A DNA stretch of 64,000 nt from Candidatus Omnitrophota bacterium (lineage in GTDB: Bacteria > Omnitrophota > Gorgyraeia > Gygaellales > Profunditerraquicolaceae): assembly GCA_043812955.1 (NCBI GenBank), contig JBDRLN010000018.1, forward strand, positions 13,849-77,848, in the 5' to 3' direction. How positions within the stretch are numbered: position 1 is the first letter of the stretch; each line of letters opens with the position of its first letter. This document shows positions 39,901-63,900 of this stretch, piece by piece. The notes beneath the pieces are model-generated. The model saw nothing but the letters and a program-made list of their open reading frames with translations, ran no database searches and was not told the origin of the DNA. Both the position numbers and the translations under genes were made by a program.

Positions 39901-42900
39901 AGAAATAGCAAGGTTATCTTTCGCACGCAAACCTCCCCGTTTACCATAGAGGGCCATCAGGATAGAGTACGGCTGGTCTCCGCGCGAACAACCCAGGGAT
40001 TTTATGGTGAGGTGAAAATCTTTTTTCTTTTGTTTTTCTGGTACGAGCATATTGAGAAAGTTATCTAGATTCCATCGGTCAACGAATCTAAACAATGTCG
40101 ACATTTTCTCAGCTTCATTCAAGGGCACAAAACCGTTAAAAATCGCTCTGGTAATATAGCGGCGCTCTGTAGCATGGTCAGCCCCTGTTTTTTCGAGTAC
40201 CTCCAGATACCCGGTCAAATCGGTCTTCCAAGAACGGGCGCGCGATGCAATAAAATCCTGACATACCTCTGCCAGAAAGACTGGCAGCTCGACAGTAGCA
40301 AGACGGAAACTAAACACGGGTATTGTTTGATTTATGAACTGAGACAGATAATGCAAATCTTCGCCATTAAGAATAAAACGGATAACTTCCTCTGTTTTTT
40401 TATCCGCCGGCGAGCTCCCGCCACAAGGCGTGTCGCCTGCCTGCCGATCAGGCAGGGATCCGCCACGTATTGTGGCGGAGGACTGATCCACCGGTGAGGC
40501 GGCGATCTTAGTTAATTTATACACAAAGATACCGCCAAACGGAGCACTTAAGACGTGGAAACAATCTAAAACAGAATGCCTAAATTTACCTTTAAGTTCT
40601 TTGGCTAACCGCAAAGCAGGCGGATACTGTGAACGTAAATCCGGATAAGGTATTATAATTGTGCCATTTTTCTTAAGGAAGCCGGGAGACTCGGTAATGA
40701 AACGTGAGGTTAACCTGAATTTAGGATCGTGCGTAGCAAGATGTTCCGGTTTCTCAATAGGCATATCTACGAAAGGCGGATCAAATATTATGTAATCAAA
40801 TTTTCTGTCATTAGGAATGTTAGAAAAAAGATCGCTTACGATAGCTTCTGCCTTGTCTTCCAAGCCGGTAATTCTAAAATTCAGGTTAGCATTATCTACT
40901 TGCTCTTTGAATGCGTCAACCGCTAAAACAGAACCGCCCTTCAAGGCGGCTATTATAGCTTGAATGCCGGAGCCTGTGCCCATATCCAAAACTTCCTTAT
41001 TCCTGAAATCCGCCTTATTGAACAGCGCGTTTGCTAATATTGCGGTAATTAACATATCAGGTGGGTATGTTCCCGGAAAACTAACGATTACCGGAACCGG
41101 TTGGTCCGGGAAATACCTTTTGATCCCAAAAACGATTGTGTTTAACTTGAATTGGCGCTTAGTTACTGAAACTACATCCTCTGATTGGCCGGCCGGCGAG
41201 CTGGAGTGTTTCTTTTTTAGGATCTTTTGTTCAAAATATTCTTCTATTATTAATGCCGGGTCGACCGGCAAACTGGATAATTTACTAGGGTTGTCCGCCC
41301 GCAAAACGGCGTCCTGATTAATATCTATCGATACATAAGAATCAGTGTGACTTTTTGATTCACGTAGAATTCCTACTAAACACTTAACAATAACGGTTGG
41401 AATGGCAAAAATTAAATAGAAGGAAAGATAGAACTGCCAGGTAAAATAAGGTTCGGCTGCCACAAGATATAAATCTAGAATAAAAGCCGTAAGCCAGGGG
41501 ATAATGATCAACTCTGAACTCGTAGACCAGTACGTAGAAATAAATTTTAAAACAATAGGATTAATCTTTTCTTTAGAAAAAGATATTTGGATTTCTCCTT
41601 TGAAGAACAACGTCAGAAATGTTTTTAAAGAGATTGATTCCCAAATTATTTCTTGCGGCAATAATTTCTTAAGAGTAAAGGGGATGTGCAAGATTCTCCA
41701 AAGGTTAAAAGTTATCCAAGTTGAAATAAAAAGTGAGCCAAACATTCCATATGTCAATATGAGCGGGCTTTTAAAATTCCAGCCATTAAACCAAAATAGA
41801 AATATTAGATTCGCACTTCCAACAAAACCGCCTACTTCAATCAAAGAAGGCACCATGATCTGGCCTATAAACCACCCTATCTTCGGCAATCCGAATTTCA
41901 TAAATAGTTTTTGAAGGTAGGAATAAAATCGTTGTAAGAACGGCCAGCCAATGAATACTACATTGACTCTTGGTATATTGGAACGGCCAACCGGAGAGCT
42001 GGAGGGGCGCAAATAAATTTCTACCACTGATTTCAATATTTCTATTTGTTTTTGTTCCGGCAATGTAAAAAGGTAGGGATTAATTAAAAAACGTGTTAAG
42101 GAACGGTGGGCTATAATAATATATTCCGGAGGTGCGGTAGCCATATGATAACTAGTCAATATTAAACGATTTTTTAACTTTTCCTTCATGCCGGAGACAG
42201 CGCCGGCATAATTATCGCCATATAATAAATAAATTGATTTGGGTAATCTTAACGGCCCCATTACACTCAGTTTAGAACATTCCTCTTGGACAAATGTATG
42301 GATTATGTCAACCCTAACTCCGAACTTTTGAATTAATCTGCCTGTTATTATATTAATATCAGCAGCATCTACCCTCTTCATCTTTGGCCATAATCTAACA
42401 GATAATAATTCAGTTAACGTTGCCAATTTTATCTTATCATTATTATCTTTGGAAATTTCCGCCGGCGAACTGGAATAAAATAGCTCCCATAAACCTTTTA
42501 TCCGCTCATCTACAGAGACTGCCCGACTTCCGATAAACCAAAGACTGCTCTTTCGGGCATTAGGAAATCTATCATAAACAATACATTTACCTATCCTGAT
42601 AGAATCTCCGATTGCTTTCTTATTTTCTCTAAGCCATCCTGCTAATGAATCGTCATACCTGGATGAATCTTCAGCAAAGATTTCTTTATATGCCCCTGCT
42701 ATTTTGCTAAATTCTTCCTCTAGAATACCAAACCCCCCAGGGTTAGCTGTAATAGGCAACATAAGATAAAATTGCGCGCCGGGCTGATTTTCCCTGTATT
42801 TATGTGCAGCTATACTTTTAATAGCGTTAGCAACGCAGGTAGTTAGGTTACATCCAAATATAATAAAATGTTTCCCGGCAAAGAATTCTTTACGCAGCTC

Positions 42901-45900
42901 GAATTCACCTGCCCCAATCCATCCGAAAAATTCGTTTGATATATTGGATTTTTCCTCAATAATACGGTTGTCGTCAACGTTTTGCATGACCTCTAATTTA
43001 TAATTAAACCCGGTAAACAAATCACCAATCTTATCTGCCATCTTATCTGCCCTAGCAATATCCAGTTTGCTTATCAGGCCTTCCGTATGTACTCCTATAA
43101 CCCTATAATCTTGCGGGATAAATAAACGCTTTACCAGCGGCGAGGCGGCAACAGGTGAGCCGGGAAAACCGTTATTTACAGCTTGAGTAATACTATTTAA
43201 AAAATCCCGGTTGATAAACGCATTTTCTTGAACAGGTAACAGCCGGCTCAAAATCATCCTTAATATAGCTGGATGAATATTTTCCTCTTCCAAGGTGGAA
43301 ATAATCCCGTAAACCATCAGACGTTCTCTTAAAGCCATGCCTTTTTTGGTACGTGCAACAAGGCTGACTTGCGTTGCTTCCTGATACCGCCGCATGGCTT
43401 CTAACACCGTAATTGCCCCTAATCCTTTCTGGATTGGGCTCCCAAGCTCAATACATAATAAACGAAGTTTATCTATATCGTAAGAATAGTCGAGCCAGCT
43501 TATCACTTTATTATTTTCTACCTCCATTACTTCTAACCTGCTTATTCCATTTGGCTCAGGCCCGTTATGCGCGGGGTAAAAAACATTTAAAAGTATATTT
43601 TTAGCTAGCTCTGCCGCACCATTATTAAACCGAAACGTGGATCCTTTATAAACATCCTGCCAGAGATGTTTCCACTGGCTGAGTCCACTAGAAAGATACT
43701 CCGCTGGCGAGCTGGACTGGCTTACGCCTCCCCGAGCCATTTTTTCCGCCCAAGCCTTATTGAGCACTCGTTTTATTACAGGTATACCTTCTGCGGGACA
43801 ATAATTCTTAGATTCGGCAGCTATAATACCTTTTATTTTTATACCTCTTGCTTCCAACGCCATAAATAGCTGGCGGGCTTCCTGCAATAAGATATTCTCT
43901 GGAATATCAACTCTTCGCCCAATTATCTGCCCAGTATTGTCAAAATCTATAGCCCAAGTCCCTTTGTGAAGGAAATAATCGGAACAGATACTTACCCAAG
44001 CTGGTTCATCTATATCGGGCAGTTCACGAAAAAAACTCCTCACTGTAATCACTTTAATCCCTTCAATAAACCGTCTTGGCACTTGCTCTATCTGATAAAC
44101 GGGATGGATCAGAAAATAATCTTTTATCTGTCCCGTAATTTCGCCTTTGGTAACCCAATTACTTTCGGTTCTAAAAAATGGCTTGTTAGCTTTTATAGCT
44201 TCGTGGATTTTATGGTCTCCTCTATCCGCATGAAAATCAAAGATTAAGACAATTTCGTCTTGTCCAAGCATATCCAGTGTTTTATCATGGGTATCAACAA
44301 AGATTATGCCTGAAGAAAACATAACTTCCACCGGCGAGGCTGAACTATTAAGCACCTTAACTTCATATAAGAAAACAGGATGAGAAAAACTTGTATCTGC
44401 GATTTCAACCTTAACTAATTTTGCGATGCCGCTCCGGGAAAGCACTCTTATTGTTTCTTTTTCTGCTGTTCCCAATTTATCGCCTAATATTGCGGCGCAA
44501 AAAGTCTGGCCGGTATATATAAAATCAAAAACATTACTCATAAACGGAATATTCCGGACATCCGCCTGCGCAATAAAAACTCTAGAGCGCTCTTCCCCTG
44601 TAAATTTATTTAACTCCTTGCGCAAATTACGGATATTTTTATCCCAAAATTCAATTACGTATATTTGAACATCGGGAGCGGTTATTTCCAATAAATATTT
44701 TACCTCTCCCAGCGTAGGGCCGGGTCCTATCACACATATACGCTTAACACCCTCCGGAAGATATTTAATCGTTGTTTTAATAAGGCTATGTACAAATGAA
44801 CGCTCAGGAAAGAAATAATCTAAGAGGCTTCTTCTATAATAGTAACGGCCGGCAAGTCCCGGGTAATCCCTTAAATTATTCCTTACCGGATCATTGTATT
44901 TTTTAAAAATCGGCGAGGCCGCGGAATATATGTTATTAATTATAGTGTTGGCCGAAAATACGGAATGGCTTATAAGAAATGTATTTTGCGGATTTTCCAC
45001 ATTAATAACAGGGCTGCTGGTTATTTTCTCTATTTTCAGGTGAGTTGTTACTGCGCCTTTTACACCCCCCTGCATGATCCTTCTTAGAATATTTTCGATG
45101 GCTTTTTTGTCTTCGGGGTATATGATTCTTTCTAGCAGTCTTTCCAGCCAAACAACAGATTCCTTAACGCGTAATAAATATAAGCTATCCACCGCAGAAA
45201 ATACTTCTTCCCTGTTGCGAACAAGGTCGGCTTCCAACATCCGCATTAAACAGCTAACTATCTGTGCTTTTTCTTTATCATTTAGCATATTGTTAAACCA
45301 CTTCCTAAAACTAACCCTTATCTTCTTTTTTGCATCTTTCATTGGTGCCCTATCAAATAAATAAGGTATAGCTATATTTCGAAACAAAAATCTTCTTAAA
45401 TCTTCATCATTCGGAATTTGTAGATCTTTCTTTTCTTTCCGCAGTAAATTCCTTATATTGCTGACATCTTCAACGCTTAATCCCTGGCCGTGCGCCTTAA
45501 AAATTGAAGCCAAAAATAAACTCAACCATGTTTCTTTTTCAAGCCCCTTTCTTCCGATCCCTAAATTGTTTAATCTCTTCAGATAAAGTTCTGGATTAGA
45601 TATTGGAGATTTGGTCTGCGCCAGCGGCGAGCTGCTGAAAACAGGCAGATTGATTTTATACTGCGGCTTGCTTCTTACTTCTTGGCCAACAACAAAAGTA
45701 AACCCGTCAGGAAGGATACTGCCTATTCTGGTAACCAATGTTTCAAAGATAAATTTGTAATGCTTAGAAATATCATCTTCTTTTAATCCTATCTTCTTTC
45801 TTATCGCATCTATTTCTTTAAATGTAATTTTGTCCTTTTTTTCTGAAACAAGCTCAACTGAATGTATTCGCCAATTAACCGTTAGCCGAGCTATGTACTC

Positions 45901-48900
45901 TTCGGCTATTATTCCTGACATATTCCTTAATCTTATCTCCATCAGCCATTCTTTATCGAAACCTTCTTTAATCTTCTGTATCTTGCCTTTGTATTTGGGC
46001 GTTAAATCTAAACTCTGAGATAGTGATTTTTGGAAACCGCTGCAATCTTCTTCTGTAGGCTCAATAAAACGTATAAGGCCCTGTTTTTTCAGCTTATCTA
46101 AATGTTCAGTTAAGATAAGTTCGCCATCGGCTAATTTTATAATGATCCCATCTTTTAATAATCGTTTTATTTCTTGGGGAGTTCTTGCTTTACCATTTTT
46201 AGTGGTTATTAATTTCATGGGCTCTTCGCAGGTAAGCGGCCTAAAATTTTCCGGGGTAAAATTTCCCGGATCTGACCATTCGCCAATATGGTATAACAAT
46301 CTATCCTTAAGCCGCATTTCCTTAAAGTCTCTGTGCCCATCTTTTATTTTAGTTAGTTCAGGAGTAAAAAGCGTACCCTGAATTGATTTATAATACTTTG
46401 CAATATTCGGAGTCTGGATGGCCTCTATATTAATAAAGGAATCCAGGGCGTAAACATAATGTTTGGCTTCTTTTAGATCCCAAGTTGATCGAGGAATACT
46501 TAAATTATCGCCGCGGTCAAGCAATTTAATTGCCCTGGCATACTTGGAACTTGAGTGAAATATCCTGCTTATAAACTCCTCTTGAGTTTCACCTTTTCTT
46601 TGAGTGAGAATTAAGACTATATTCAATATAAAATAGGCTTTTCTAAACTGTAAAGTTTTAAAAAGAGCGAAACCAAGTTTAAGTATGAACCAACTTATTC
46701 TTTTTCCTGCATCTCTGTATTCTTCTATGGTATCGTGCAAGAGGATTACAGAAACAAAAACATCCAATTGTAGTTTTAGATTATCAATGTCCTGAAAGAT
46801 TCCTTTATCCTTAACAATTTTTGCAACCATACGTAGGAGGTGCATAAGATATGGCTCGCCAAGCGCCTGCCGAAATCCGGGATGAATCTTCTTGGCTATC
46901 TGATAGGAAACTTCGATAAGGTTAATATTAATCCCGGGAGACATAAGTGCCAGATTATCCTTTAGTGCATTAAATTGCTGATCAAGTTCTTGTTCAGTAT
47001 ATTCGCGCGGAGAATATTTCATAAGATAAACCGGTACGGAAATCCTGTCTTTCTCCCAAAATGTTGCCGTGCCCCTGACTACCTCCTTCATTTGCGGGAA
47101 AAAGCTAAACCATTTTTCAGCGGTAGTAAGTAAAAACCCGTTATTTTCAAGCCAATCAAGCATATTACTGGCAATGATAAAAGTCCGAATATGGCCGATT
47201 GGTTTTTGTTCTTTTTCAATCAGGTATTCATAAAAATTATAAAGAATAGCGTAAAACTTCTCCTCCCTTGGAACATCTAGTCGAATATCAATAAATTTAC
47301 GCACATCCTCTTTTATCTGATAAGTCCCCTCTTCTCTTAAATCAAAATAGCGCTTAAGTAGTACCCTGGTTGTCTCGGAGAGATAACGCTCTCTATTTAA
47401 GGTTTTAAAACAATCTACATGATAAATACCTTTTTTTGCTTTATTAAACGCCTTCTTATCGAAATCAAATACCGCAACTTTTAAAATATCGGGGGTAAGT
47501 TCTATTCCTTCCCAGGCCCCGGGATTTTCTCTTCTATCCTCTAGAAGCCAAATGACTACCTGGTGAGCCTCGGCAATAGTGGAAATACCGTATAATTCTC
47601 GTACTGAGCCAAAACTTAAAATTTTAATCTGCTCCCCTGGTTTTGCCTGCGCTAAACGCTTTCTAATTAAAGGAATAACATCTTCTTTAAACAAGCCCAT
47701 TACCTCTTTTCTTTCACCTATACCTACATTAAAGAAGCGATAAGGATACGATACTTCTTCCTTACCCTGAGCCCTCATCTCTTTCGGCACTCCCACTGCC
47801 GATTTTCTTCTATCCTGATTAACCGGCGAGCTAACCGAAAAATTGATTTGGGCTTGAGCGCGCGGAACAATAAATACACTCATATCCCCATAATAATATT
47901 CGGGTGAATCCTGTATTGTTCCAATTACTTTTATTACCTTAAGAATTTCTATATCTTTAGGATCTATATCAATATTTATTTCACTCAATTCATTTAGGCT
48001 AAACCTGCGGCTGTCTTTTTTACGTAAGAGCCAGGCAATCTCTCGGAGCAATTTGCTAAGGCTTTTTCTGTAGGAAATGCAAGAGATAATATCATCGAAA
48101 TCCTTTTCTTCAATCATCGTAAATTTATTGGATAAATTCATAATTGTTAAACAGTTTCTGCCTTGAAGATAAGATCCCCCTCGCTCAAAGGCATTCTTTA
48201 TGTCGTTTGCAGCCGCAGCAAACAAAAGTTTTAAACCATGGATGTCATCCCTGATAGCTAATCCACTAATCCAGCTTAGTTCCGTCTTTACGAGCATCTC
48301 TTCAATATTAGTCAGCCTTATGCTCGCCCTAAGGTCAAAGGCCCGGGCAATATATTTATCCACCGGGAATCTATCTCCTTTTATATTTATCAGGTAGCTT
48401 TTCTGGAATAAGGTGTTTAAAAAATCTTCCGCATATTGATATTCGTTTTTACCGATTAAGGCCTGAATAAGAAAAACATTTACAATAAATTCCCAATTAG
48501 GGGTTACATACTGACGTAATATTTGATCAAATTGAGAAACCTCCAATACCGTCCGATTAAGCTCATCGGCAATATCAAATCCGTGAGCATATAATCTACC
48601 GGACTGAAGAAAATCATCCAAGTAGGCTGCTTTTTCAAAAAGATATGCTACTCTGTCCTCTAGCGTCTGTGAAAACCTGATCGCAGAATTTAAATCTTTT
48701 AACCCCGCCTCAAAGTTACGCATCTTAAGATGGAAAAATGACCTTAAGTGGTAGCCCGCCGGGCATAGATCGATCTCGCCGATGATCTCCTCTGTTTTTT
48801 GAAAAGCCAAGGCAAACAGATCTTCACTCATATCGGCAACTTTTAAGTAATCAAGAATGGGCGCTATATCTTGAGGATCCCATAGAATCAATTCTTTAAG

Positions 48901-51900
48901 CCATTCTAAAGCTAATGAATAATTTCTCTCATATATTGCCGTCCCGACTGCATAATTCAACCTTTCCTTATACTTGTCCTCTACGGGCGAGCTGGAGAAC
49001 CCGGATATCTTTTCTAACAGTAGTTTTTCTAGACTATCCTCTTCTCTTAAAAGACTCCTTATCACCTTCTTAGATCTTTTCCTACGGTAGGCATCTGCTT
49101 TCAGGACTTCCTGCTCAGCTTCATCGCGTTTACCGGAAACATCCTCTAGAGTTTTGAGTCTATTTGAAGTATCAGGCGATTTTATCCCCTGCGTAACCTT
49201 TCTTAATTCGCTTAGGAAACCTACCTCTTCAATCATTTTCTTTGGATCGTTTTCTGCCTGCCAATCCTCAACCCAAGACATCTCAAAAAGCAATTTTACC
49301 TTAAAGTGCTTCCATAAAAATTTGTCTACCTCTGCCTTAACTTTATCTAACTGTTCCAGGAGATTTTTTGGATAAGGTAAGACTGTATTCCTTTCTATAA
49401 CTAAGTAAAATACTTCCGGAGGCTGCCTTACAATAGTAACCTGATAACCTAAATCCTGGTTATTGAAGAACCGGTCTAGGGCTAAATTTAACAATAATAT
49501 CAGGGTATTCCCCGCTTTATGGAAAAAGACTCCCTCAAAAGATTTAAAACCAAAAATATTTGATCCATCATTAGCTTTTCTGATTTGTCTGCTGCCTGAA
49601 GCCTTTATCATATTTTTAAGAGTATCCGGGTCATCGCTGGTATAAGCCGGGTTTAGCCTGCAAAGTGAAATATCTTTTTCAGCCTGGATAAGCTGGTCTC
49701 GTAGAATATAATATAAGGCAATACGCATGAATGAAGGATAAAGCTCTTCTCTTTTATAGGGCAGTCTTTTTAAACCCTGCCCTATCTGGGCTGATTCTTT
49801 AAACAATCCAGCTCTCTCTTCCTCAAAATCTGAATCGCCAATGCTTATTTCTGCTTCAGGAATTTCAACCGATTCCTCTATCAAAACATAAGGTTTATTA
49901 TTTTTGGCTATATCCTGAAGCATAGACCCGGCCTTAAGGATATTCTCGACTAATTCATCTATATTATTTTGCGAGGCAAAACTTGCTGCCCTGGCACCGC
50001 CTATAGGCAATAAAGGAACAGGGACAGGCAAATCAAATTTCCCTCTTAGCTTAAACTTATCTTCGGAATTAACCGCCAAAACTATCCTTTTTAAAGTTTC
50101 TCTCAAAGAATAAAGGCTTCCTCTTTCAAAAAATATAAAATATTTATTCTCTGCCCGGCTACCAACTAACACCGGAAGAATAATGACTTTTTTTACTGAT
50201 TCGGTTTCTTTAAGCTTAGTTATTACGTCCTCACTATTTCCTTTTAATATATCCAAAGACGCTATAGCGTATCTTCCTTTAAAATATTGCATCAGCTCAA
50301 AAAGAATAAGATAGGATATCCTCTCAACCTCTTCCTTCTTATATTTCTTAGGGCTGATACTCAAAATCTCATCGGCAACCAGATGCCTGGTGAATCCGCC
50401 AAACCTTTGCTCAACGCTATCGGCGATCTCTATTGCCTTATTAATTAAAAGATCCATAACCTCCCGGCCAAAGGTATTATTTCTATCGTAGAGTTTTTTC
50501 ATATCGCCAAATTTAACCCAGCAATCGCCCTCCTGCGCCAGGAACTCTTTTAATTCAGTCAGGGCAGTCGGCTTTATAACTCTCTTAAAGAAGGGAATTT
50601 CCTGCTCATAGCCCTCTTCCGCTTCTAACCATTCCACATATTGGCCTATGGCGCAATCTATCTCCTGCCGATACCTCAATTCAATCTCTGAAAGAGTATA
50701 CTTTGTCTTGATGCCATCTATAAAATCAAGCGCTTCTTTAAAAAATTCAAATTCTATTTCTTTTAATTTCTGATAACATTCCGCGGCTTTTTCACCGATT
50801 GTAGAATCAAAATCGTAGTAAGAAAGCTCCTGGAGTTCTCTAAAATAAATCATAACTTCATAGGTATTATCGGAAAATCTTTTGGTAATATCGTAAAGCA
50901 TTGCCACCTGGGGATCTATAAACTCATAATCAAACTCCAGATCTCCGAACTGAATAAGCCCAATACCTTGTTTTATATATTTGCGGTACAGGAGTGTGTT
51001 AATATATATTCTTAATTTGCTGGCAGGAGTAGCTATACTTGCCTGCAAACCATAGTTCTCAATAAATTCAGTATTATTCCTTATCTGCCGAAGGTTACTT
51101 TCTCTTGAGAAATTGATTAATCCAACCCTGACCAATATGCCTATTCCCTTAAGAATCCTTATCGCTTCTCTATTTTGTTCAGGTATTATTCCTTTAGTGA
51201 AATATTTCAACTGGCCAGAATCATTACTCTCAACCCCTAAAAATACTTGCTTAAGGCCTGCCTTTTTCAATAACTCAAACACCTCTCTGCTATCTTCGGT
51301 TACAGCATCGGAACGCGTAAGTATCCAGAAATTTATCCTTAGGCCTCTTTTAATAATTTCATCGGCTATTCCCCTGGCTCTTTCAGGCTGATTACCGATA
51401 AAATCATCATCAACAAAATCTATTCCGGTTATCCCGACTTTTATGAGGTATTCTATTTCATCCACTACTCTTATGGCTGAACGGTGACGCCAGAATAAAT
51501 CCTTGGCCCGAATTAAAGAATTCTCGCGGTTGATACAATGGGCTTCATCAAAAAATTTATGTATGCCGCAAAAGGCGCAAGACCCAGGACAGCCGCGGGA
51601 AGAATCTAACTGGGCTATCTTGGCAAACCTGTCCGTTTTATCATGAACTATTGACCAATCCAAAGGAGGTAATTTATCCAGGTCTTCCGTGGTCAGAACA
51701 TAGCGGGGATTACTGACGATTTCGCCTTGCTGGTTTCTATAAATCACATTTTCTACGCCTTCTAAATCCTGCCTTTCTGATAATTGCTTTATAGCCTTTA
51801 CAAAAGCCAATTCTCCCTCCCCAGCCACAATAAAATCAATATCCGGGAATTCCTTCAAGAAATTGTCTTTGGAAATACTAGGTAAATAGCCACCGGCTGA

Positions 51901-54900
51901 GATGAAAAACTTTCTATTGCTTTTTAATTCTTTAGGCAGGAGACTAAGGAAATTTGTAAGATACGCCTTGTCAGCCGGAAATAAGCTTAAACCCAGGAAT
52001 ATCTCTTCTTGCGGATATTTTACCGAAAGAGCTACAACCTTGTTGGCTAAAGCTTCTGCGGATAAATTAAGCTTATTGGCATCAATAAATTCTACCGCGA
52101 TATCATTTGCTTTTAAGGAGGCGCTGATTCTGGCGAGGCCTAAAGGTTTAACGCTTCTAAGGGAGGCGTGATCGGGATTTATTAAGATAACTACGGGGCT
52201 TGAGGATGGCGGCGCATGCGCAAAAAATCCTTTTTTCTCATTCAACAGCTGATTTAAAAATCCCTCTAAAATAGGGGACGTTTCTATTTTCCTTTGCGCC
52301 GGGGAGCTGGATTTTCTGGCAGTAACTAGGTATTTATTCTCTAGGCTTACCTGTGAATAATGATATACTGCGGGATAGTCTACAGGTATATTCTTACCCT
52401 TAAATAATCTAACGCTGGATGCTTCAAAACCAGCCCCTTTTATAATAACAGCTATCTCTTCGGCTTGAAACCCGTTATCCCGGTCATTGTCCACACTCAT
52501 AAACGCAACTCCGCCTCCGAGGCTGCATACCCGTAAAGACTCCTGTAAAGCTTCTTTTATTGATCCCAATCCTACAGTAGGATTAGGATAATTCAAGGTG
52601 ATAAGGTTAAAGGTGCCATCCCGGAATTCAAGACAGGACCAGTTCATATTCCATATTAAAACAAGGTTCTTCTCCGCAGCAAAGCCGGATAATATCTTTT
52701 CACCGTCATTATCAATGCAAGTAAAACGCGCTCTTTTCCCCCACAGCGTATACCTGGCATCCCTGGCAAAATCGCCAAACCCCGCCCCGATGTCTAAACC
52801 CCAGAGCAAACGCAAGCCCGTATACCTAAGAATATGGTTACAAAATTCGGTGAAAATATTCCAGCCTGCTTTGCCTCTTTTAATTTCAATCCGCTGGTTA
52901 ATTACATACGCTGCCTGCCTGATAAACTCCTGCTTACGGGGGTCGCTTTCGCTTGCCAGAAGAGACTCTAACTCTCCAAGGACGCTCCTACCGACTAAAT
53001 CCACCAAACAAATCATCGCCCGATGGTAAACATATGGCATATCGCTGGATAAAAACAGCTCCAGAAGAATATGTTTAACCTTACTCTTTTGAGTAGAAAC
53101 CTCTCTTTCGCAAATAGCCGCAATCGCATCAATTGATTTTTGCCTAAATGAAAACACGGGATAACTGGCAAATCCGGCAAGAGTACTAAAAGAACCAATG
53201 CTACCGCAATGCTTGAGAGCGTTAATAAATTCCAAAGTTAAGTTAAAATATTTAGAGAAATTACCATCTCTATGTATAGCCTCAAGCGCTTTTAATAACA
53301 CCGCCTCTAAACTAAGGTCTACGCCTTTTACTATAGCAATTTTAGGTATAACAACTTCAAGATACTGTAATTTTTTGATATTCATCCGCACCAGCCCGGA
53401 GGGATTCCTTAAAAAATTTTCCAAAACCGGCGAGGCGGAAGTTTTTTGGACATTTTGTCTAAGGAAATCGGCGAACTGCTTTATTAATCTCCCTTCCCTG
53501 AAGAATCCCAGAAAAATTTTTCCGCTAAGCTGATTATCAATATTATCCCCTAACTCAAGGTATTTATAAGCATTGTCTTTACTTAAAATAAAGTAGCGCG
53601 GAGCAAAGCTCAACAGGACAAGATTTGATAACAAACAGGCGGTACGCTTATTACCTGCAGCAAATAGCTTAAGATGGGTTAATTTAACAAAGCATCCGGC
53701 AGCCAGCAAAAACGACGAGTCAGGACCTAAATTATTTCTGTAATTTCTCATAAACCAATTGGCAAACCTCCTGACTGAGCGGGTAGCGCCTTTATGGTTA
53801 ACCTCTCCGGCAGGCCTAATTGCCAGATTTAATTGATTTAAGAACACGCTAAATTCACCCGCATCCTTAAACTTGGTTTCAATATAATTATTAATGAATT
53901 TACATCCAACAATAAATCCGGCAATTATTTTTATATCCGGGCTAAAGTGTTTAAAAAGTAAATTTTTAGCGCCTTGATTAATCTCCGGCCAACTAATTGA
54001 TAATTCGCTAAGCTTATCGAAAACCAATCCTAAATCTATTCTTCCTTTGAGCGAACCCGCAGAGAGCATACTAAAACAAAAATTACTAATCGCGCGCAAG
54101 GTTCTTTCATCTTTTCTCCGTAACGCGCTTTCGTGATCAACGCCTTCAATTCTTCTTACTGCCGGCATGCCAGTATCCTCGGGATCAAAACTGATCAATT
54201 CAGTTATGCCGTCCGTATTTGGGGTAGCTAAATGATCAAATATTTTTCCAATCAGCCCTTTCTTCACTTCGGGAATAATCCTGCCTTCTTTAGTAAAAGT
54301 ACTGATGATTAATGCTTCCCCTTTTCCCCAATGCCTAAGCCTCTTTTGAATATCTTCTAAAAGGGCCGTATTCTCCGGCCTCCCCTTTATAAGCTGGCGG
54401 TGTATTCCCTTGCGAGGATCCCTTATCTTAGCTAAAGAAAGTAAATCCCAAAATAAAGGCATCTGCAACCTCATCCATCGAGATATTCCTTTACTGAAAG
54501 AGAACGCCGGATTAACCAGCACTAATCCATCCACCCCTTTATTTTTTAAAAATTCGCTGTTATAGGAGGCTAAAACCCCTCCGAAACTTTCGCCGATTAC
54601 TATTATCTTAGGATCTTTAGGATAAGGTTGAGTTTCAAAAATTCGCTCCATTATCGGGATAAAAATACTTTGGCTTATATCTTGAATGTTCATGAGTATA
54701 TTCTTTGGCTTAAAGTCAGCGTGAGGAAAAGAGATTACCGCAAATCCCAGCCCTAAAAAATACCTTAAGAATGAATCTTCCTGCCAAGAGATAAGATCGT
54801 AGTAGGGTAGATATAGCTGGCGCATCTTAGGGCGAAAGATAGACCGCAGGAAATTATAGGCATCCAACACCCTCTTACCGTGAACATATATTATAGTTAT

Positions 54901-57900
54901 GCCGACAGGGTTAGCCGGCGAGGCTATTCGAAATATAAACTTTTTTCCCGAGACTTCAAATTTATACGGATAAGGTAACGCTTCAGCTTTTTCGCCCTCC
55001 AGCGGCGAGCTACCTAATTTATGGGAGTTGGAGCAGCTACTAATTTTTTGATTATTTTCTTTCCTTTGCGCAATTTCATCCAAAATGGTTAAATTATTCT
55101 TAAAAGAAGGATTTTCTAAAAAGCTCATTTCTTTGGCTTTCATAACTAAAATAGCTGTTAAATCCGGATTTACTGATATATTTTTATAGGCAAACCCGCC
55201 TACACATTCAATCGGCAACCTACCATTAATAAACCAATATTTACCTTTCCTCGCAGGCACAAGGCCTTTTTCTTTCAAGCCAGTCCTGTTAAATAATAAA
55301 GTTACTTCTTTACTGCGTAAATAACGGTCATCATCGTCTTCCCAAGAATCAAATAACCAAACATCTAACATATACCCGCTATTTAAAAATTTTACGAGAG
55401 ACTCTTCGTCGGTGTTATGAAAAAAATATTCGATAGATCTATGTAATTGAGCGCTATTTAAAATACCCCCGTCATTTACCGGCGAGCTGGAAGATTGTTT
55501 CTTGAGTTCATTCCAATCAATTGTTTCCCGGCCTCCGGTTTCTTTAATGGTCAGCAGGTGCTTAGACTGTATTGCTGCTGTAAGAAGGCCGCTCAAAACC
55601 TCAATTCTCTTTATCAAACGCGGCATTACCTCGATAAAGCTCGCAACATCATATGTCTCTTTCAGGGTAGCAACCGTTAACCAAATCATTTGAGCCGTAA
55701 CACCCAAATCCAACGAAGAATCCCAAAGTAACGGCAAATCCCGTTTAGCCTGCTCCAGGAAGCTCGCCTGGCCATTGCCTAAATCTGTTCCGCTTGCCAT
55801 TAATCGAATAGCGTCTTTAATTTCATCGGCGTTTTTCTCGACTTCTTCGCAAAGCGAGACAGATTTAACCTGCAAAACGCTATTCTTAATTCTAACTACC
55901 TGTTTATTCAAACCATCCACAAAGGCCTGGAGTTTAGTAAATTCCTCATCGGAAAGCGGCGAGGCGGCGGAATATGTAATATTGACAATTGGACTGGCTG
56001 AAAATACGGTAGGGCTTGAAGGAATAACTAAAGGAGATAATTGTGGTTTTGGCCCTGCCCGGGCAGGATTTATCGTATTTGAGTTAAGTAGGGGTAATAT
56101 TATATTTTGCGGATTAATTACATTAACAATTGGGCTACTATTAGCTATGTCTATTGCCAACCGGGTTGCTACTGAAGCGCCGCACGGTCTCTTGGAATAA
56201 AAAGTAGAATTTCTAGATTGCTCTAGCGGCAGATTGGAATGGCTGGCTGCCAATGGACTTGAGCCGGATGAGTTCTTGGAAAGCATACTATTCGTAAGTT
56301 CGAGCTTAATAAATACTGCCTGTTTATCCTCAGCTTGCTCTAAACTATCATACTTTCTTTTTGCGCCAGAATGAACGATGATTTTATAAATCCGCCCTAA
56401 CTTAAATTCCCCTATTGTAAGGCTTGAAATAGGGATATAGGCCACGCCATAATCGCCTTCTTCGCTGATTGTATACATCCAGGGATTACGGCCAAGGTCG
56501 ACATCTGAAATATTACAAATCCAAACTTCATCTTCATCTAACAAACTGACAAAAATGTTTATTCCTGCCTGCGTCTTGGGAAAGATAATTTTTAAAAATT
56601 TATAGCGGCGTAAATCCTTAAATGGTTCATCATTTCCATTTTCATCTTTCGGGCTATTCTTCCAGCAAGAGAACTCTCCATTTTTGGACGCTGTATCATC
56701 AAATCCTTTGGCAATAATTTTTGCCGGCAGAAGAGCTTTAGCTGATTCCCCGCGTGCCACATTAACAATAGCAGGATACTTAAAAGCCACTGCTCCAACA
56801 ATTACGGCCTTTAAAAGCTGTCTGCGGGTTAAGACCTTTGAATTAAATGAATCAGTGCCAAAACTAAGCGGCGAGGCGACGGATGGCGAACTGCTTACAC
56901 GCGCAGGCGAGCTGGCGACGTAAGCGCCCTGAGATTCATTTCCGTAATATTTGCCAAAGGCAAGAATAAAACTCGTCCTTATATTCTCCAGATATCTCCG
57001 GCAGGGCGATAACCAATACTCTTTGTCCCGACTCTGCCAATACTGTTTCTGGGGTGAATCTATCAAAGTTATATAATCAAATTTAAACCCGTTTTCTTTT
57101 AACTTCTTCAGGAAATTATCTATCACTTCAGGCAGGTTTTTTGGATTCACATACTGAAGCGCATCCAGGTCTATACTCAACACACGGTAAATGCGCGGCG
57201 AGGAAATCTTTTCTTCTGGCGGGTGTAACGCAGTAAAACTCAAGGCGGTTTCGGTTATCCTGCGCTGCATTAACACTCTCCCCCCCGGCATATTTTCCTG
57301 TATATCGATAAGAAATCTTCCACTGCTCTTCATATCTACGCTCACCGGCCAATATCCACGACGGGTATTAACCAACATTGCTTCTAATACAATATTATCC
57401 CGGTAGAAGTTACTGCCAGTAATAGGCAAATCATATAACTTCACTAAAGTGCCCTCGATCACCAGAGGACCTATCCATAACCCAGGGGAACGCATTCTGG
57501 CATAATGACGTATTGTCTCTATGTCCGCCGGATTAATAAAGTAAGGGCATTGTTTAAGCTCTCCGTTTAACCAGCGCTCCAGGAGTTCCCGGTGTCGGAA
57601 ATACCGGTCGTTTCGTATGTCAAGACGTTCATTCTCAACCCGGCCTTCGTCAACCCATCTAAAAAATGCCATTTCTTTCGTTTTCTTATCCAGTAGTTCA
57701 TGCAACAATGGCGGAGTAGGAGCCCCCGGATTTCTGTCGTCATGCTGATCCGTGTTGTAAACCACAAAAACACCACCCTCTCTCAGTCTTATTTCGGTAA
57801 GAAGGCCGTATAAAAGATTATGGTCTGCGAAAGAGAATACGGATATCCCATTACATTGATAGAGCTTGATATCATTTCCGTAGGGGCAAGGGAGTTCTAT

Positions 57901-60900
57901 GATGCGCTGCGGGTTGTATTCTCTATCTACTGGCCAGGCGGGAATACTGCTAAACCGGTTCAGCAAAGACCGTAACCAACGCCAAGCTTGTAGCGGCGAA
58001 CTAAAGCCTCTTTCTTTAGCCAGCGGCGAGGAGGCAGAATTTATACCAGCTACAAGAATACTTTCTTCAGGCTGAGGGCTTAAAACAATGAATTTTCCTC
58101 TTTCCGGGCCACTGCTTAATATTTTCCCTTTTTGATCAAACTGTTTATTCAAGAAAATAAGGGCATTCTGAGTAAAGTAGGTGCCTTCTTCTAAACCTTG
58201 AATATCTTCAAACCCTGCAAGCGGGAGCTTTTCCGAGAAAACGCTTTCTGCCAGAAGCAAAAAAAACAGCGTCGGTGCTTTTAAGAATACCCGGGAATAT
58301 AAACACGCGCTCATCCCCCTGCGAGGATACTCTGCGCATTTTTCATGCCTTATCGGGTATTTAGAACATCCGGAGGCAAAGATAAGCCCGCCTGCCGATG
58401 AATAATCAAAAACTGCCCGAATAGCCCAGCAAGGAAAATACGTATCGAAATCATTTCCTTTCTTCCCGCGATAAATACCCAGCGCCATTTCTCTTCTAAC
58501 AACCGGGCAATCCCTGCCGTACTCCTTTTTTAAAAATCTTCTTATTTTAGGATAATCGTTGAATCTAAATTTTCCCGGGATATCCTGCTCCAAGAAACAA
58601 CAAAAACTATCTACGCAGCGCCTTCTACCTAATATCTCTGCGAACCTTAAGTCTACCAGGCCTTCTTGGAAGTTTACTCCGGAAAAATTATTTGGCGAAA
58701 AGTTAACCGGCGAACTGGCTTCCTTTTTAATAAGCTCCTGGTTTTTAACCAATTCCGGATAATTAATTATTTTAGGGTTATTTAAATCGGCTAGGAAATC
58801 TTTATATCCCACTACTCTTATCAGGCCCTTTTGGCCCTGATAGCAAGTATTATACATATGCACAATTACTTTTCCCGAGGGATAAAGAAATATACCGATA
58901 CGTGAAATATCTATTGATTTGGTTTCTTCTATCTTAAAATTCTCCTTTAATACATATTTCGTAGTTAGTATTTTTTTAATGTCCGGAATCCTTGATATAT
59001 CCTCGGATTCATCTGTATATAACATAAGTATCCTGGTCATCGGATCCCTGATCAACTCTAATATATATTCCTGGCTTAAATCATACTTAAACAAATCCCA
59101 GATATCGGTATCACTAGAATACCTCCTTAAGTATAAAACTTTGTTCCGGCTATCGGCTATAACCATATCTATGCATTGAGATAGAAACTCAACCACGGGT
59201 CTATTCTTAACCTCAACAGGATAATCTAAATAGCTCATTCTTCTGTATCCGGAAAGGTCGACCAAATCTTTCGTTTTAATTATTACCGGAGAGCTGCCTT
59301 TGTAACCTTGCCACGCTGTCCCAGCTAAAGCGGACACGCTGTCCGAACCAAAGCGGACACTGTGTCTTAGAATCAGCGGCGAGGCAATAGCAGGTGCCTG
59401 AAAATTATACGCTATTGGGCTTGAGCCGGATCGAAATTTATTTTCAGCCCTGCGTCGCTTTGCACCATCAGGGGCCTTCCCGGTATTTTTTATAAATTGA
59501 CCCGGAGAAGGAAAGCCTTTATCATTTACATAATGAGATGAGAGATAGTTAATGCCGCCGTGCCCGGGAACAAAAATAAACTTTTTTCCGCTATTACGGA
59601 AGATATTTTCTTTAACCCAGTGTAAAATTAAACCTAACTCGTTGGTAAGCCTGAAAAAATCTCTTTCCGACAGTTTCAAAAAATCTTTCAACGCCCCGAA
59701 TTCTATTAAAATGGCATTATAGCCCAGGATTTTTGAAACTTCTTCTTTCCACTCGCGGACCGAGACTTTCTGATTTTTAAGCTCCACCACATAATTACGG
59801 CTATCCCGCGCGAAAAATACCTTTAAACCGGGATCAGTATTAAAATGGCCCTCTGCCACTAAACTGTCGCTACCATATTTATCTTTAATCAATAAAATCA
59901 GATTTTTAAAATAATCATTGCTCTTTAACCCACTGGGCGGCTCATAATATTTTTTCCCAAATATAATTGATAACCTTTTAAACAAATGATGCGCAACTAC
60001 TGCCTCAGGTATCTCGGATAACCCAGCAGCTTGAATATACTGTTTAGTTTCATCAATTAAACCGGGCAAAACGGAATCTTCTGAAACTGACGATTTAGCT
60101 TCGATCAGCGCCATATCCGCTGCGGGCTGATTATTTAAATTATTATCCTTACCATCTGTAAATCCCAGGTTAAATAAACCTATAGTTAAAATAACTGCCA
60201 GGTTAACAGGCCTAAAACTTGCCGGCGAGCTGGCTGTTTCTTTTAAAATTCCTCCTATAAATTCATCCTCAAAATACATATCTGTGTCAATTCTGTAAGG
60301 TAGGTTTTCTTTTTTTAGATGCTTTCTTAAACAAGCGGTGTCTGCGCTGCCGGAGAGAATAACTACTCTGGGCCTGAAAAATCTGGTTAAATCAGCTAAA
60401 TCATCATTCTTAATGCAATCTTCAGATGGCCCGACTAAACAAGGAATGCCAAAATGTTCCAAATTAGCTACTAAAATATCAACGCTATCATTAAATCCGC
60501 TTTTTTTCTTTAATTCGGAGAATAAACAACCCATATATTTAAAGCTGACTCTTTCTTGCGGCAAGGCGTTTACTTTAATAGACTCAAGGAGAATTCTCTT
60601 AGACTCTTCATGCCTATCCAAGGCGTATACTTTTTTAGCCCCTAATGATAAGGCTGCGAAAGTTATCACTCCGTCTCCGCAGCCGGCATCTACCACCACT
60701 TTATCTTTAATTTCAAGATGCTGCATCCCCAGCAGGCATCCCGCTGTCCAATGTTGAAAAGTCCTGTTATCATAAGCATAATCTTCTTTGCGCATATTTA
60801 ACATATCTACGCCAATGGCTATTAACCCCTGTTCGGTGAATTTCATCAAGTCGAATAAATGCAAATAATAATTATCAATAATAACTATTCGTCCCGAACG

Positions 60901-63900
60901 ATAAAAATAAGTTTCCATATTACTGGAATGAGGCCCAACATGAAGGTTCACTCTGTCTTTATGCCCGTTAAAATTTACGTATCCCGCGTAACGGATGTCT
61001 TCCTTAAAACCATAATCACCCAACTTATTCGCTAAATCTGCCTCGATCGCTAAGGCCTGTATTTCATCAGCCGGATTTAAAGATTGAGCAGAAGCAGCCG
61101 GCGAACTAGACCATTTTCCACCTACGGGGTGGCGCCCACCTACGGGGTGGAATAAGATATAATTCCTTTGCACCGGTGAACTAACCTTATCGCCCAATCT
61201 TCCGATCGGACTATAAACAACTTCCGAGGCTTTGGCTATTCTTAAGACCGCATTCACATCTCCTGCTATACGATAAGATTTTATCCCATATTTAATCCTG
61301 GTTTTTTTTACGGCCCAGGCAGCTGCTTCTAAAACCTGCCTTCTTCTTAAATTTACCTGCTCGATAGAAAGCCATTTTCCGGTTAGGGCCTGTTCAGTTT
61401 CAAAACTGGATACAATGACTCCGCCGGCATTACTCAAGGTATCAGGGATCACTATAATGCCTCTTTCGTATAATTTAAGCTCGGCATCACTGCTTGTCGG
61501 ACCATTAGCCAGCTCTACCACTATATCAGCCTTGACCAAATCCACGTTATCCCGCCTTAACTGATTTTCTAATGCCGCCAGGACTAAAATATCAACCTGC
61601 GCCCCGATTATCTCAGCAGACCTGCCAGACAAACCGATCCTCCAATCTTTAACATCGAATTTTCCTAACATCTGCGCGTTGACCCTCCCCTGCAGAAAAT
61701 AATTTACCAGAGCTTCTCCTTGCAGACGATTATTTGCCCACTCCACCATAGGCGTTAGGTCTTCCAGGCTAAAACCTTCCTTCTTATAAAGAACGGCTGT
61801 ATGGTCGCTGATATATTGGATAACCGCCCCTTTTTTGACTAAATCTAAAGCTGCATATGAAGCAACATTGCCAAAACCCTGTATAGCCACGGTCTTTAGC
61901 CTTAAACCATCGACTATAACCCGCATAACATCCACTCCGCCAAAACCTGTTGCCTCAGTCCTACCCCAGGAACCGCCTAAATCAATTGGCGTAACCGGCT
62001 TGCCGGTATAAACTCCCAATAGAGGGAATGAATGACCCATCTTTGAATAACGGTTGACCTCTTTAAGCAAAGGCGTATCGGTAATGTCACGCTCTCCTTT
62101 ATTTATTATCCCGATCAACTCCGCGTATAGCTCCGGGTAATTATTCTGTATTTCACTGGTTTCTTCCAGAAAATATTTTATATATTCATCGGCATACCAA
62201 GAGAGGATCCTACCGTTTGTATTCATATCCGGGGCAGGTATATCTATATCTATACCGACCTGGTTATTCCTGGCTAACTCCCGGCTATGTAACCTGGAAA
62301 TCAAAGCTAAGTTATGCGGATCGCGCCAATTTTCGCAATCCTTTAAAACCAATTTTCCGGACTGAGCGGTTAATTCCCCGATAAAAACAATCCCTTTCCC
62401 GCCGCCCAGATTTAAACCCGCCTGTGAATTCTTTAAGGACATATCCAGCGACAGAGCATTGCATAATTCTTTAACCCACTTAATAATGAAATGTTTTATT
62501 TCCTCTTCCGTTGCCCGGAGTCCATTTAAACGCTCAATGGCTTGAGCGAATAATCCCGAACTTTCATTCATCAGGGTTGAGCCCGTGATATAACGTATTC
62601 CGCCTTTGCCCGGGCCCAAAACTACATTATTCCTAATTCTTACCTGATATATATTAGCCTGGTAGATAGAGTAATTCTGCCTTATCAATTCCGCGCTATA
62701 CCAGCTATCATATACATTAAAAGGAATCTTTAGTTGATTAATTATTCCCAGATTTACGCTATCTACGTAAGGCCTGGTTGCTTCCAGACGCTGCAGTGTA
62801 TCCTGCCAATAAGGATTAACCGTTTCCTGAATAAGTTTCTGGACTGCGGATTGAATGGAAGAAGAAGCAAGGACCCAACTTTGGCTGGCAAAAGGGTACA
62901 GATTTAAATAATTATGGTTTAAAGAATTAACTATGCTCGAAAAACTTATTCCCCGCGTTAATTCTTCTGGCAGAAAAATTTTACCCTCAACATCGATTAA
63001 GCCATTGACATTAGTATCAGTTTCCTGCATCAAGAGATTAAACTTAACGGATAAATTAAAGTTAATTGATCTTATATATTCATATAACTCAAGCCTGCAT
63101 TCATTAGTTTTAACTTCAATAATTAAATCTATGTCCGCGCCGGGATAGATATCTTCAAAGTGCTTCACGGAACTGCCAAATAACCAGATTTTTTTAATAT
63201 CGTCATAACGACTAACCAGCTCCTCGGTAATTAATATTGAGAGCGCATACCTTAATATACTATGCGCCGGTTTATAGCGGCTTGGGTCATCTAAAAGGTT
63301 TAACTCTGAAATTAACTCCTCTGCGCCATTTAAACGTAATCTTTGAGAAGTCTTAAACAAAGCCTTCTGCCATAATTTTTCCACCCTCATTGCTATAATT
63401 GTAGTTACGTCCGCGCCTACGGGCGAAGAGGAGATTGCTTTACCCGCAGAAGAAGAAAATCCGGGCTTTTTCGCCTGCAATTCCCACATTTTGTATATTT
63501 CTGTAATTAGGCCATTGACTTTTGCTTTTTTTATTTTGACAATAGTAAAACCTTTAAATAACTTCTCCAGAGATTCCGGTTCAAAAAACCGGTAAGGCAG
63601 CCCATCAAGAATGTAGATCTCTTTATCGACCGGTAAACCTTGGCCATATTTACCATCAGCCTGAGAATATACTATTGCAAAAACTCTTCCCCTCGGCTTA
63701 AGCACCCGCCAAATCTCATCAACTATACGCCTCATCATCCTATCGTCAAAAGATATCAGGCTGCAGTTAGCGTAAACTATATCAAATTCTCCATTAGAAA
63801 ACGGCAAAGGTTCTGTTAAATCCTGGACCTGGGCAACCAGCCTGCCTGCAATACCCTGCCGGATTGCCTCTTTAGATACCCGTTCTATGCAAACAGGGGA

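Follow-up and report, generated by a model that had tools for sequence, protein, structure and literature searches.

We analyzed a 64,000-nucleotide stretch of a Candidatus Omnitrophota bacterium genome (contig JBDRLN010000018.1 of assembly GCA_043812955.1, positions 13,849 to 77,848 of the forward strand), which we call the window. It carries one giant open reading frame (ORF) on the minus strand, and the encoded protein contains a radical S-adenosylmethionine (SAM) module preceded by a cobalamin-type Rossmann domain. This is very probably a genuine, functional radical SAM module of the cobalamin-domain type, housed in an autonomous cassette. The radical SAM module is always fused to the same C-terminal pair of domains, predicted to be cyclase-like palm domains, as one portable unit, and this pair is its only constant partner. 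Taken as a whole, we consider it somewhat probable that the cassette is a functional OxsB-like enzyme of the cobalamin type that acts on a nucleotide-class substrate, with a PilZ protein possibly reading the outcome.

A radical SAM module within a giant protein

A sequence-only reading of this DNA had placed a B12-binding segment and then a radical SAM core within a giant multi-enzyme polypeptide. Both are present, in that order. Pfam Radical_SAM (PF04055) matched residues (aa) 4126-4288 of the giant ORF with 47.3 bits against a gathering score of 29.5, and orthologs scored 46.7 to 52.7. The Rossmann fold was modelled, and its B12-binding profile score is borderline (see below). The cluster motif had been located at 51572-51600; the peptide is real (SRGCPGSCAFCGI, aa 4126-4138), but the start was 10 nt off, because it occupies 51562-51600 on the minus strand, and the plus-strand translation there is meaningless. 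CxxxCxxC occurs only once in the 13,005 residues. The interval proposed for the module, 48990-52200, matches almost exactly one segment between two junction motifs, aa 3929-4993, as described below. Of the three profiles that had been suggested as checks, Radical_SAM was above its cutoff, B12-binding fell slightly short, and SPASM/twitch (PF13186) had no match at E-values up to 0.05. The C-terminal part of the module is an all-helical bundle.

All 19 NCBIfam equivalog families for B12-type radical SAM enzymes scored far under their cutoffs. The best curated family was BchE, the anaerobic Mg-protoporphyrin IX monomethyl ester cyclase (TIGR02026; 126 bits against 481), which aligned over the Rossmann domain and the core but left the C-terminal region of the module unmatched. 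HpnR (93 against 650), PhpK (78 against 600), and HpnJ (69 against 578) were among the subthreshold matches, together with other methylase families. Families that act on ribosomally synthesized and posttranslationally modified peptides (RiPPs) scored lowest. Several homologs carry the automatic name BchE, but the window has no bacteriochlorophyll context. We rejected both BchE and YgiQ as identities, since homologs carry them only as automatic names and the family scores do not come near the cutoffs. A sequence search of the PDB had OxsB as its best match (E-value 2e-22, or 1e-33 with a profile of the module's clade).

The structure of the module was predicted with confidence. The AlphaFold2 model, built from a 100-sequence alignment, had a mean predicted local distance difference test (pLDDT) score of 91.9 and a predicted template modelling (pTM) score of 0.91. 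It comprises a Rossmann domain of five strands, a partial TIM barrel, and, at the C terminus, a helical bundle, which is the fold of cobalamin-dependent radical SAM enzymes. Foldseek against the PDB ranked OxsB first (E-value 1e-28, TM score 0.75), followed by TsrM, TokK, CysS, AprD4 (6fd2; E-value 2e-16, TMt 0.73), and MgmA. OxsB (PDB 5UL2-5UL4), a radical SAM enzyme that depends on cobalamin and is not a methyltransferase, shares the Rossmann domain, barrel, and C-terminal helical domain, and its GxES and GxIxF motifs align with GVES and RVGLINF of the module. However, identity is only about 20%, and the extra N-terminal domain of OxsB is missing. The window also lacks an OxsA-type partner; there is just a borderline HD-domain gene beside a free-standing relative. 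Fusion to two palms is unique to the clade of the module. The class 1 methyltransferases TokK, TsrM, and CysS have the same three-domain architecture by fold, but only 13 to 17% identity, weak sequence scores (26 bits for TokK), and unrelated substrates and gene contexts.

In class 1 enzymes, a nonhistidine residue from the loop after strand 3 lies beneath the cobalt: Asn186 in OxsB, Arg69 in TsrM, and Trp76 in TokK (PMC13331322). In our module, Phe3999 (window 51979-51981) follows strand 3 and aligns with OxsB Asn186 and TokK Trp76. The position is Phe or Leu, and never His, in all nine clade members, so that a bulky hydrophobic residue is shared with TokK and differs from the Asn of OxsB. 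Judged from the alignment, Phe3999 would be compatible with base-off, His-off binding of cobalamin, without being proof of it. We infer that the module uses cobalamin and is catalytically active.

The module belongs to a constrained, Omnitrophota-only clade

Two orthologous giant genes were recovered. L001, from a genome scan, is a 12.9-kb contig of an Omnitrophota metagenome-assembled genome (MAG) with one uninterrupted ORF of 4,297 codons. L005, from a metagenome scan, contains a complete ORF of 6,493 aa (L005:110-19591). Their radical SAM modules are 83 to 84% identical to that of the window, with CxxxCxxC intact. Radical_SAM was matched, and the three cysteines are conserved in other giant genes, the two points on which the sequence-only reading had staked its case. 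Between the window and L001, synonymous divergence (dS) is 0.68. The ratio of nonsynonymous to synonymous divergence (dN/dS) comes to 0.053 in the Rossmann domain and to 0.105 in the radical SAM core. Both values denote purifying selection, and within the cassette the constraint is strongest on the Rossmann domain. In the 100-sequence alignment, the three cluster cysteines as well as G209 and G321 never vary. Across the clade, GG and GEGE are retained in the Rossmann domain, as is the GxES ribose motif in the core, and the motifs as a set are intact in eight of nine clade members.

An exhaustive search of representatives resolved these sequences as a discrete clade (at least 450 bits, 45 to 53% identity) that is made up exclusively of long proteins. 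Members are P0121 (1,196 aa), P0122 (5,182 aa), P0123 (2,145 aa), P0124 (1,671 aa), P0001, P0125, and P0131, and all those that carry a name are from Omnitrophota. Below the clade, scores fall to 244 bits and then to about 170 bits for ordinary standalone B12-type radical SAM proteins. The module thus represents a clade confined to Omnitrophota that lies under every curated family cutoff and is described here for the first time. Around the nearest standalone homologs, P0002 and P0005, the neighboring genes offered no hint of function, except that a flavodoxin-like gene follows P0002. As a side observation, P0005 (L004:344-8398) lies among GH57 branching-enzyme, DUF4912, and ClpP genes. These families also flank the housekeeping region of the window (1583-4338 and 13131-13790), which might be phylum-level synteny or coincidence.

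The radical SAM module is fused to a predicted pair of palm domains

All clade members run past the radical SAM module into a common tail of about 520 aa. The tail (aa 4470-4995) had no matches in a word-indexed search for homologs, and so the clade members from the exhaustive search were used instead. The tail was modelled with a pLDDT score of 81, and its fold matches were GGDEF cyclases, Cas10/Csm1, soluble adenylyl cyclase, and GTP cyclohydrolase III, at modest E-values (3e-6) and a TM score of about 0.2 over the palm pair. From the model, the tail appears to be two tandem, cyclase-like palm domains, of which palm 1 looks competent and palm 2 looks degenerate.

The motifs agree with this picture. 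In six of seven members, palm 1 keeps the metal-binding Asp, the Asn and Asp to which guanine binds in diguanylate cyclases, and, where GGDEF would be, an acidic pair (VADEI). Palm 2 is without the beta1 Asp (FGFK) and has an invariant PP[E/D]xF across the clade. Soluble adenylyl cyclase and Cas10 have a similar arrangement, with tandem palms of which the first carries the binding residues and the second is degenerate. The difference from GGDEF diguanylate cyclases lies in the signature itself, which is VADEI and PPEVF in the cassette. P0001 does reach 36 bits with Pfam GGDEF (PF00990). In its fold and its palm 1 residues, the tail of the window copy resembles a cyclase but cannot be filed as a member of the GGDEF family. 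Radical SAM module and palms together form a cassette of about 1,070 aa, and the module between junctions spans aa 3929-4993.

The cassette is inherited as a unit, and its neighbors are not conserved

The sequence-only reading had proposed a modification assembly line because the radical SAM module shares its polypeptide with several methyltransferases. The neighbors of the cassette differ in each of three orthologous genes. In the window, the cassette follows an alpha/beta-hydrolase-like domain and a weak methyltransferase match and precedes an unassigned module (aa 4996-5382, with no PDB or Pfam match). In L005, a GT1 glycosyltransferase is upstream and a GNAT-like domain is downstream. In L001, an HPr-like domain is upstream and an unassigned module is downstream. 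Only two blocks are shared between the window and L005, one of which is the cassette (aa 3889-5001, 80.5% identity), and the blocks shared with L001 are rearranged. The giant genes are mosaics more generally (L001:1-12893 and L005:110-19591 compared to window 24958-63975); some modules are common to them at 57 to 80% identity, and their order differs. The cassette is the best-conserved block in this otherwise mosaic comparison.

The cassette also exists outside giant genes. In another Omnitrophota MAG, GCA_016213925.1, it is a free-standing gene of 1,196 aa, named "B12-binding domain-containing radical SAM protein" by NCBI. It closes a series of co-directional genes, among them one for a methyltransferase and one for a borderline HD-domain protein. 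Adenylate-kinase and IMPase/CysQ-family domains come after the cassette in P0123. The cassette therefore behaves as an autonomous unit and is found in three states: as a separate gene, in a midsize fusion, and in giant ORFs. Because the neighbors differ in each ortholog and a free-standing gene exists, a colinear assembly line is argued against, and a fused "bag of enzymes" is favored. The proposal had counted at least six methyltransferases. Five class I domains in the visible giant ORF score above Pfam cutoffs (aa 1-141, 1077-1225, 6430-6517, 7644-7791, and 7967-8119), and two more are subthreshold (aa 3727-3821 and 5498-5564).

We noticed one further feature of the free-standing locus (L008:1-11591; GCA_016213925.1, JACQZH010000056.1). 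Five co-directional genes, including the cassette gene, all end in [VLI][EG]QAI, and most have signal-peptide-like N termini. Other clade proteins end in QAA, SNA, LSA, IAA, or TAA. These endings may be a shared sorting or processing tag.

Junction motifs bound the cassette

The cassette is delimited by a short peptide motif that recurs throughout the giant protein. The giant ORF has 37 copies of SSP[V/I/A], for the most part SSSPV or SSSPA, compared to 0.5 expected from shuffles, and the other ORFs of the window, with 7,389 aa in all, have one. These junctions interrupt no Pfam domain and no pair of transmembrane (TM) segments. They mark off 38 modules in the giant ORF (median length, 268 aa), of which the radical SAM cassette is the largest. 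Homology with L001 and L005 begins and ends at junctions in the case of the cassette. More generally, 10 of 15 ends of homology blocks lie within 15 aa of a junction, a result that was not equalled in 10,000 random draws. In both models, that of the radical SAM module and that of the tail, the junction residues lack structure and have lower confidence.

In the window, the junctions are also uniform at the DNA level. The coding word is nearly constant and GC rich (CC-AGC-TCG-CCG-G), and even synonymous positions are conserved. For serine, AGC makes up 68% of the codons in motif copies compared to 20% elsewhere, and TCG makes up 68% compared to 10%. All 15 copies of the exact 10-mer AGCTCGCCGG are in the giant gene, on its strand, from 26280 to 60231 (minus strand), where 0.1 would be expected. 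This uniformity might reflect recent spread, gene conversion, or a recombination joint. L005 has the same junction peptide with varied codons. A purely DNA-level signal was therefore rejected, because L005 varies the codons and yet keeps the peptide, and the peptide is the primary constraint. Assembly chimerism was also rejected as the source, since three independent assemblies have the motif and a word of 12 nt is not long enough for contigs to be misjoined on it. The motif is absent from the more distant clade members.

Candidate roles for the junction are a processing site, a recombination joint, or a plain linker. We found no mention of it in the Omnitrophota papers examined or in a full-text search. 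The cleavage points of giant proteins were stated to be unknown (West-Roberts et al. 2023, bioRxiv 10.1101/2023.11.21.568195). A broader proposal, which we regard as unlikely, is that the giant protein is a string of autonomous cassettes, with SSSP[V/A/I] as a polyprotein cleavage point or a module-swap joint. The radical SAM cassette would then make or modify a nucleotide signal for PilZ, possibly inside prey or host cells that supply SAM, reductant, and corrinoids.

What the cassette might do

The reading that we favor can be put as a sequence of steps. The cluster held by Cys4129, Cys4133, and Cys4136 would cleave SAM reductively to give a 5'-deoxyadenosyl radical, which would take a hydrogen from a small-molecule substrate. 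Cobalamin, bound base-off and His-off over Phe3999, would be the methyl donor or the radical partner. The substrate may be a nucleotide that the adjacent palm domains make or bind, and the product or signal may be read by the neighboring PilZ protein. The module would work as a self-contained unit of a fused bag of enzymes and not as a station in a colinear series.

The nucleotide is our leading guess for the substrate, and it is a tentative one built on circumstantial evidence. OxsB is an oxetanocin A biosynthetic enzyme that acts on deoxyadenosine phosphates. A nucleotide is preferred because of this OxsB affinity, because the palm pair is invariant and relatives have kinase and phosphatase domains, and because of the PilZ genes and the HD-domain neighbor of the free-standing copy. 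PilZ genes flank three of the five loci examined (the window giant gene, P0123, and the giant gene of L005, which they follow). That PilZ reads a cyclic-nucleotide output is speculative.

Several observations weigh against this reading. The window copy is just below the Pfam cutoff for B12-binding (PF02310; aa 3942-4060, 29.7 to 30.8 bits against 32.1), which three of seven relatives pass (L001, 32.5; P0001, 39; P0123, 46.6). Cobalamin binding is not readable from the sequence in any case, because AprD4, which has the same architecture and which we take to lack cobalamin, is among the fold matches. There are no genes for cobalamin synthesis or transport (cob, btu) in the 64-kb window. No curated equivalog family was reached, and the reaction may be methylation or a nonmethylating rearrangement or cyclization. 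On the nucleotide side, the window copy has no Pfam GGDEF match, and its palm 1 lacks both glycines of GGDEF. The HD-domain gene that precedes the free-standing copy scores 25.7 against a cutoff of 27.2. The window copy has no adenylate-kinase neighbor; we looked for an adenylate-kinase-like segment in its giant ORF and found none, and the 13,005 visible residues contain no Walker A motif (GxxxxGK[ST]). In P0122, from a Logan assembly, the first cluster Cys is replaced by Trp at aa 2112 (SRGWPGNCRFCG) in an otherwise intact cassette, which could be a sequencing error or a naturally cluster-deficient form. Finally, P0121 to P0124 have, by inspection, Sec-signal-like N-terminal segments. Read literally, these signals would put SAM-, Fe-S-, and ATP-dependent domains outside the cytoplasm, which is hard to reconcile with radical SAM chemistry. 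Similarly implausible localization predictions have been reported for giant proteins (West-Roberts et al. 2023, bioRxiv 10.1101/2023.11.21.568195). In the giant protein of the window, the hydrophobic or TM segments are paired (aa 7489/7519, 10049-10112, and 10376-10414), and there are none from the visible N terminus to aa 7489. We infer that its radical SAM module is in the cytoplasm.

The alternative that fares best, possible although we doubt it, is a classical class B radical SAM methyltransferase acting on a nonnucleotide small molecule, a lipid, or a component of the cell envelope or the prey surface, with palms that are unrelated or regulatory. In essence, this is the sequence-only reading minus its assembly line. 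Methylation of unactivated carbons had been suggested for this module at the outset, and this was reasonable as a prior: methylation is the commonest reaction of cobalamin-dependent radical SAM enzymes (PMC11659888). Kdo and lipopolysaccharide genes are nearby, HpnR, PhpK, and other methylases appear in the family scores, and Phe3999, as a hydrophobic and nonligating residue, resembles Trp76 of TokK, an enzyme of radical methyl transfer. It goes no further than a prior. BchE, the curated family with the best score, and OxsB, the closest solved relative, are both nonmethylating. Moreover, no lipid or polysaccharide partner is conserved beside the cassette, whose sole invariant partners are palm domains of the nucleotide type.

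It is quite unlikely that the enzyme is a cobalamin-independent radical SAM protein of the AprD4 kind, with a Rossmann domain that has a structural role or binds the substrate. The strong fold match to AprD4, the subcutoff B12-binding score of the window copy, and the lack of cobalamin genes in the window would all fit, and cobalamin synthesis is not universal in Omnitrophota (PMC10066038). However, no part of the cassette is more constrained than the Rossmann domain (dN/dS of 0.053), and GG, GEGE, and a hydrophobic residue after strand 3 are all conserved. Cobalamin-bound OxsB, TsrM, and TokK also rank above AprD4, and three relatives do pass the B12-binding cutoff.

Somewhat less probable still is a sensory role, in which the state of the Fe-S cluster, the cobalamin, or the SAM site controls palm 1 through the helical bundle, PilZ reads the output, and turnover is secondary or absent. 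Diguanylate cyclases usually have an N-terminal domain, a helical linker, and a GGDEF-like domain in that order. The cassette has the same order, with a helical bundle of about 110 aa connecting the barrel to palm 1; PilZ genes adjoin in the window, L009, and L005; and P0122 tolerates the loss of one cluster Cys. Against this, all catalytic radical SAM motifs are under strong purifying selection, palm 1 is without the GG of GGDEF, and we found no precedent for a radical SAM sensor in the literature examined.

Because some relatives methylate protein residues, such as the glutamine methylase of methyl-coenzyme M reductase (MgmA/QCMT), and because an enzyme on one chain with its substrate would work efficiently, the module might act on its own giant protein or on a sister module, in a posttranslational modification of the protein or RiPP-like kind. 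This is very improbable: the cassette is free-standing elsewhere, its neighbors are not conserved, there is no SPASM or RiPP recognition element (RRE)-type feature, and RiPP-type families score lowest. Least likely of all, to the point that we set it aside, is an inactive relic in a fast-evolving giant gene; domains of giant proteins have been described as highly divergent (West-Roberts et al. 2023, bioRxiv 10.1101/2023.11.21.568195), and P0122 has its Trp for Cys, but the low dN/dS (0.05 to 0.10), the CxxxCxxC intact in orthologs, the motifs intact in eight of nine clade members, and the standing of the cassette as the best-conserved block between mosaic orthologs make a relic extremely unlikely.

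Relation to known giant proteins

The host protein fits a described group. "Archaeovorin" giant proteins of Omnitrophota have Radical_SAM and GGDEF among their 20 commonest domains, with pilZ directly downstream (West-Roberts et al. 2023, bioRxiv 10.1101/2023.11.21.568195), and PF04055 was counted in 90 long Omnitrophota proteins (2026 preprint, 10.64898/2026.06.07.730766). The window resembles them in its Omnitrophota host, its single ORF of more than 13,000 aa, its methyltransferases and other enzymes, its TM helices, and pilZ immediately downstream. Both preprints give Radical_SAM as a Pfam label only, glossed "SAM-dependent methyltransferase," and neither mentions B12 or cobalamin, a radical SAM-palm cassette, or a junction motif (10.1101/2023.11.21.568195; 10.64898/2026.06.07.730766). 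A radical SAM domain in an Omnitrophota giant protein was therefore already known, whereas the cassette and the SSSPV junctions that bound it are new.

The giant proteins of Omnitrophota rank with the longest on record, and neither their function nor their processing is settled. Behind one of their recurrent labels, we find an intact and strongly constrained enzyme, apparently OxsB-like and of the cobalamin type, that is tied to a cyclase-like pair and travels with it between free-standing genes, midsize fusions, and giant ORFs. At 1,070 aa, the cassette is a tractable construct for biochemistry. It also offers a concrete hypothesis, in which nucleotide chemistry would be coupled to PilZ signaling, and a caution that giant proteins should not be treated as assembly lines. 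The SSSP[V/A] junctions allow modules to be cut objectively for structure prediction and proteomes to be searched for processing sites, information that was lacking according to the 2023 giant-gene study. The interest would be greater if the junction motif or the link between nucleotides and PilZ proves functional.

Other features of the window

Coordinates are collected in Table 1. The giant ORF is listed as 13,005 codons (window 24958-63975, minus strand), but there is no in-frame stop past 63975, so that 63976-64000 is included and the frame is open to the window edge at 64000. The first visible residues already belong to a methyltransferase domain. The window therefore cuts off the N terminus of the ORF. 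The counterpart in L001 of its first visible module begins about 67 residues earlier. The source contig is 87.9 kb and extends past the window, so the giant protein may be thousands of residues longer.

Table 1. Positions of the giant ORF, the cassette and its parts, and associated features in the window
Feature	Position	Strand	Evidence or value
Giant ORF of 13,005 codons or more; multi-enzyme protein of the Archaeovorin type from an Omnitrophota MAG	24958..64000	-	ORF calls, Pfam map
SSSPA junction, aa 3889-3893; start of the block conserved with L001 and L005	52297..52311	-	
30-aa leader peptide QRKIETSPILEGFLNQLLNEKKGFFAHAPP, kept with the cassette in L001 and L005	52207..52296	-	
SSSPV junction, aa 3924-3928, right before Rossmann strand 1; start Met of standalone homologs falls here	52192..52206	-	
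Cobalamin-type Rossmann domain, aa 3928-4066; GG and GEGE motifs kept	51778..52194	-	dN/dS 0.053
Linker/beta-hairpin between Rossmann domain and barrel, aa 4067-4119	51619..51777	-	
Radical SAM partial TIM-barrel core, aa 4120-4350	50926..51618	-	dN/dS 0.105
CPGSCAFC, CX3CXphiC [4Fe-4S] motif; Cys4129, Cys4133, Cys4136; Phe at the aromatic position	51568..51591	-	
GVES ribose motif in the radical SAM core	51226-51237	-	
C-terminal helical bundle of the radical SAM module, aa 4355-4467; comparable to the OxsB C-terminal domain	50575..50913	-	
Predicted palm domain 1, GGDEF/cyclase-like, aa 4486-4692; putative metal Asp4491, guanine-pocket Asn and Asp, VADEI for GGDEF	49900..50520	-	
Predicted palm domain 2, degenerate, aa 4751-4923; beta1 Asp lost (FGFK), PPEVF for GGDEF	49207..49725	-	
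Long C-terminal helix closing the cassette, aa 4943-4990	49006..49149	-	
SSSPV junction, aa 4994-4998; homology with L001 and L005 stops	48982..48996	-	
Dehydrogenase, nucleotidyltransferase-like, and HPr-like domains of the giant protein	61222-62640, 62977-63225, 31510-31770	-	Domain search
PilZ-domain gene (NCBI MFH1397158.1), directly downstream of the giant ORF	24177..24887	-	78.7 bits

The PurA, KdsA, and PilZ proteins encoded beside the giant gene are exact matches to MAG proteins of "Candidatus Omnitrophota bacterium" at NCBI. The remaining genes of the window are of the housekeeping kind: UppS, GH57, PurA, SerA, SerC, ClpP, trigger factor, Kds and Lpt genes, an MsbA-like gene, PfkB, and CheR. 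Between 47 and 54 kb, there are no Rfam families and no significant repeats, and all antisense ORFs are of 92 aa or less. The 13,005 visible residues of the giant ORF contain no glycosyl hydrolase, peptidase, NUDIX, or SecA-like domain, all of which are features of Archaeovorins. The upstream flank of the giant gene, where Archaeovorins have a type II secretion-like locus, falls beyond the window.

Among its other enzymes, the giant protein has a complete Glu/Leu/Phe/Val dehydrogenase domain (156 bits). A nucleotidyltransferase-like domain comes before it within the same junction-bounded module. The protein also has an HPr-like domain of the phosphotransferase system (30 bits); in L001, the HPr-like module is directly upstream of the radical SAM cassette. 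A ComFB-CheR_N-CheR methyltransferase gene (22668-23888, plus strand), the sole plus-strand gene of the window, adjoins the PilZ gene, and a CheR-like module is found inside the giant protein as well (aa 7967-8119; window 40119-40577, minus strand).

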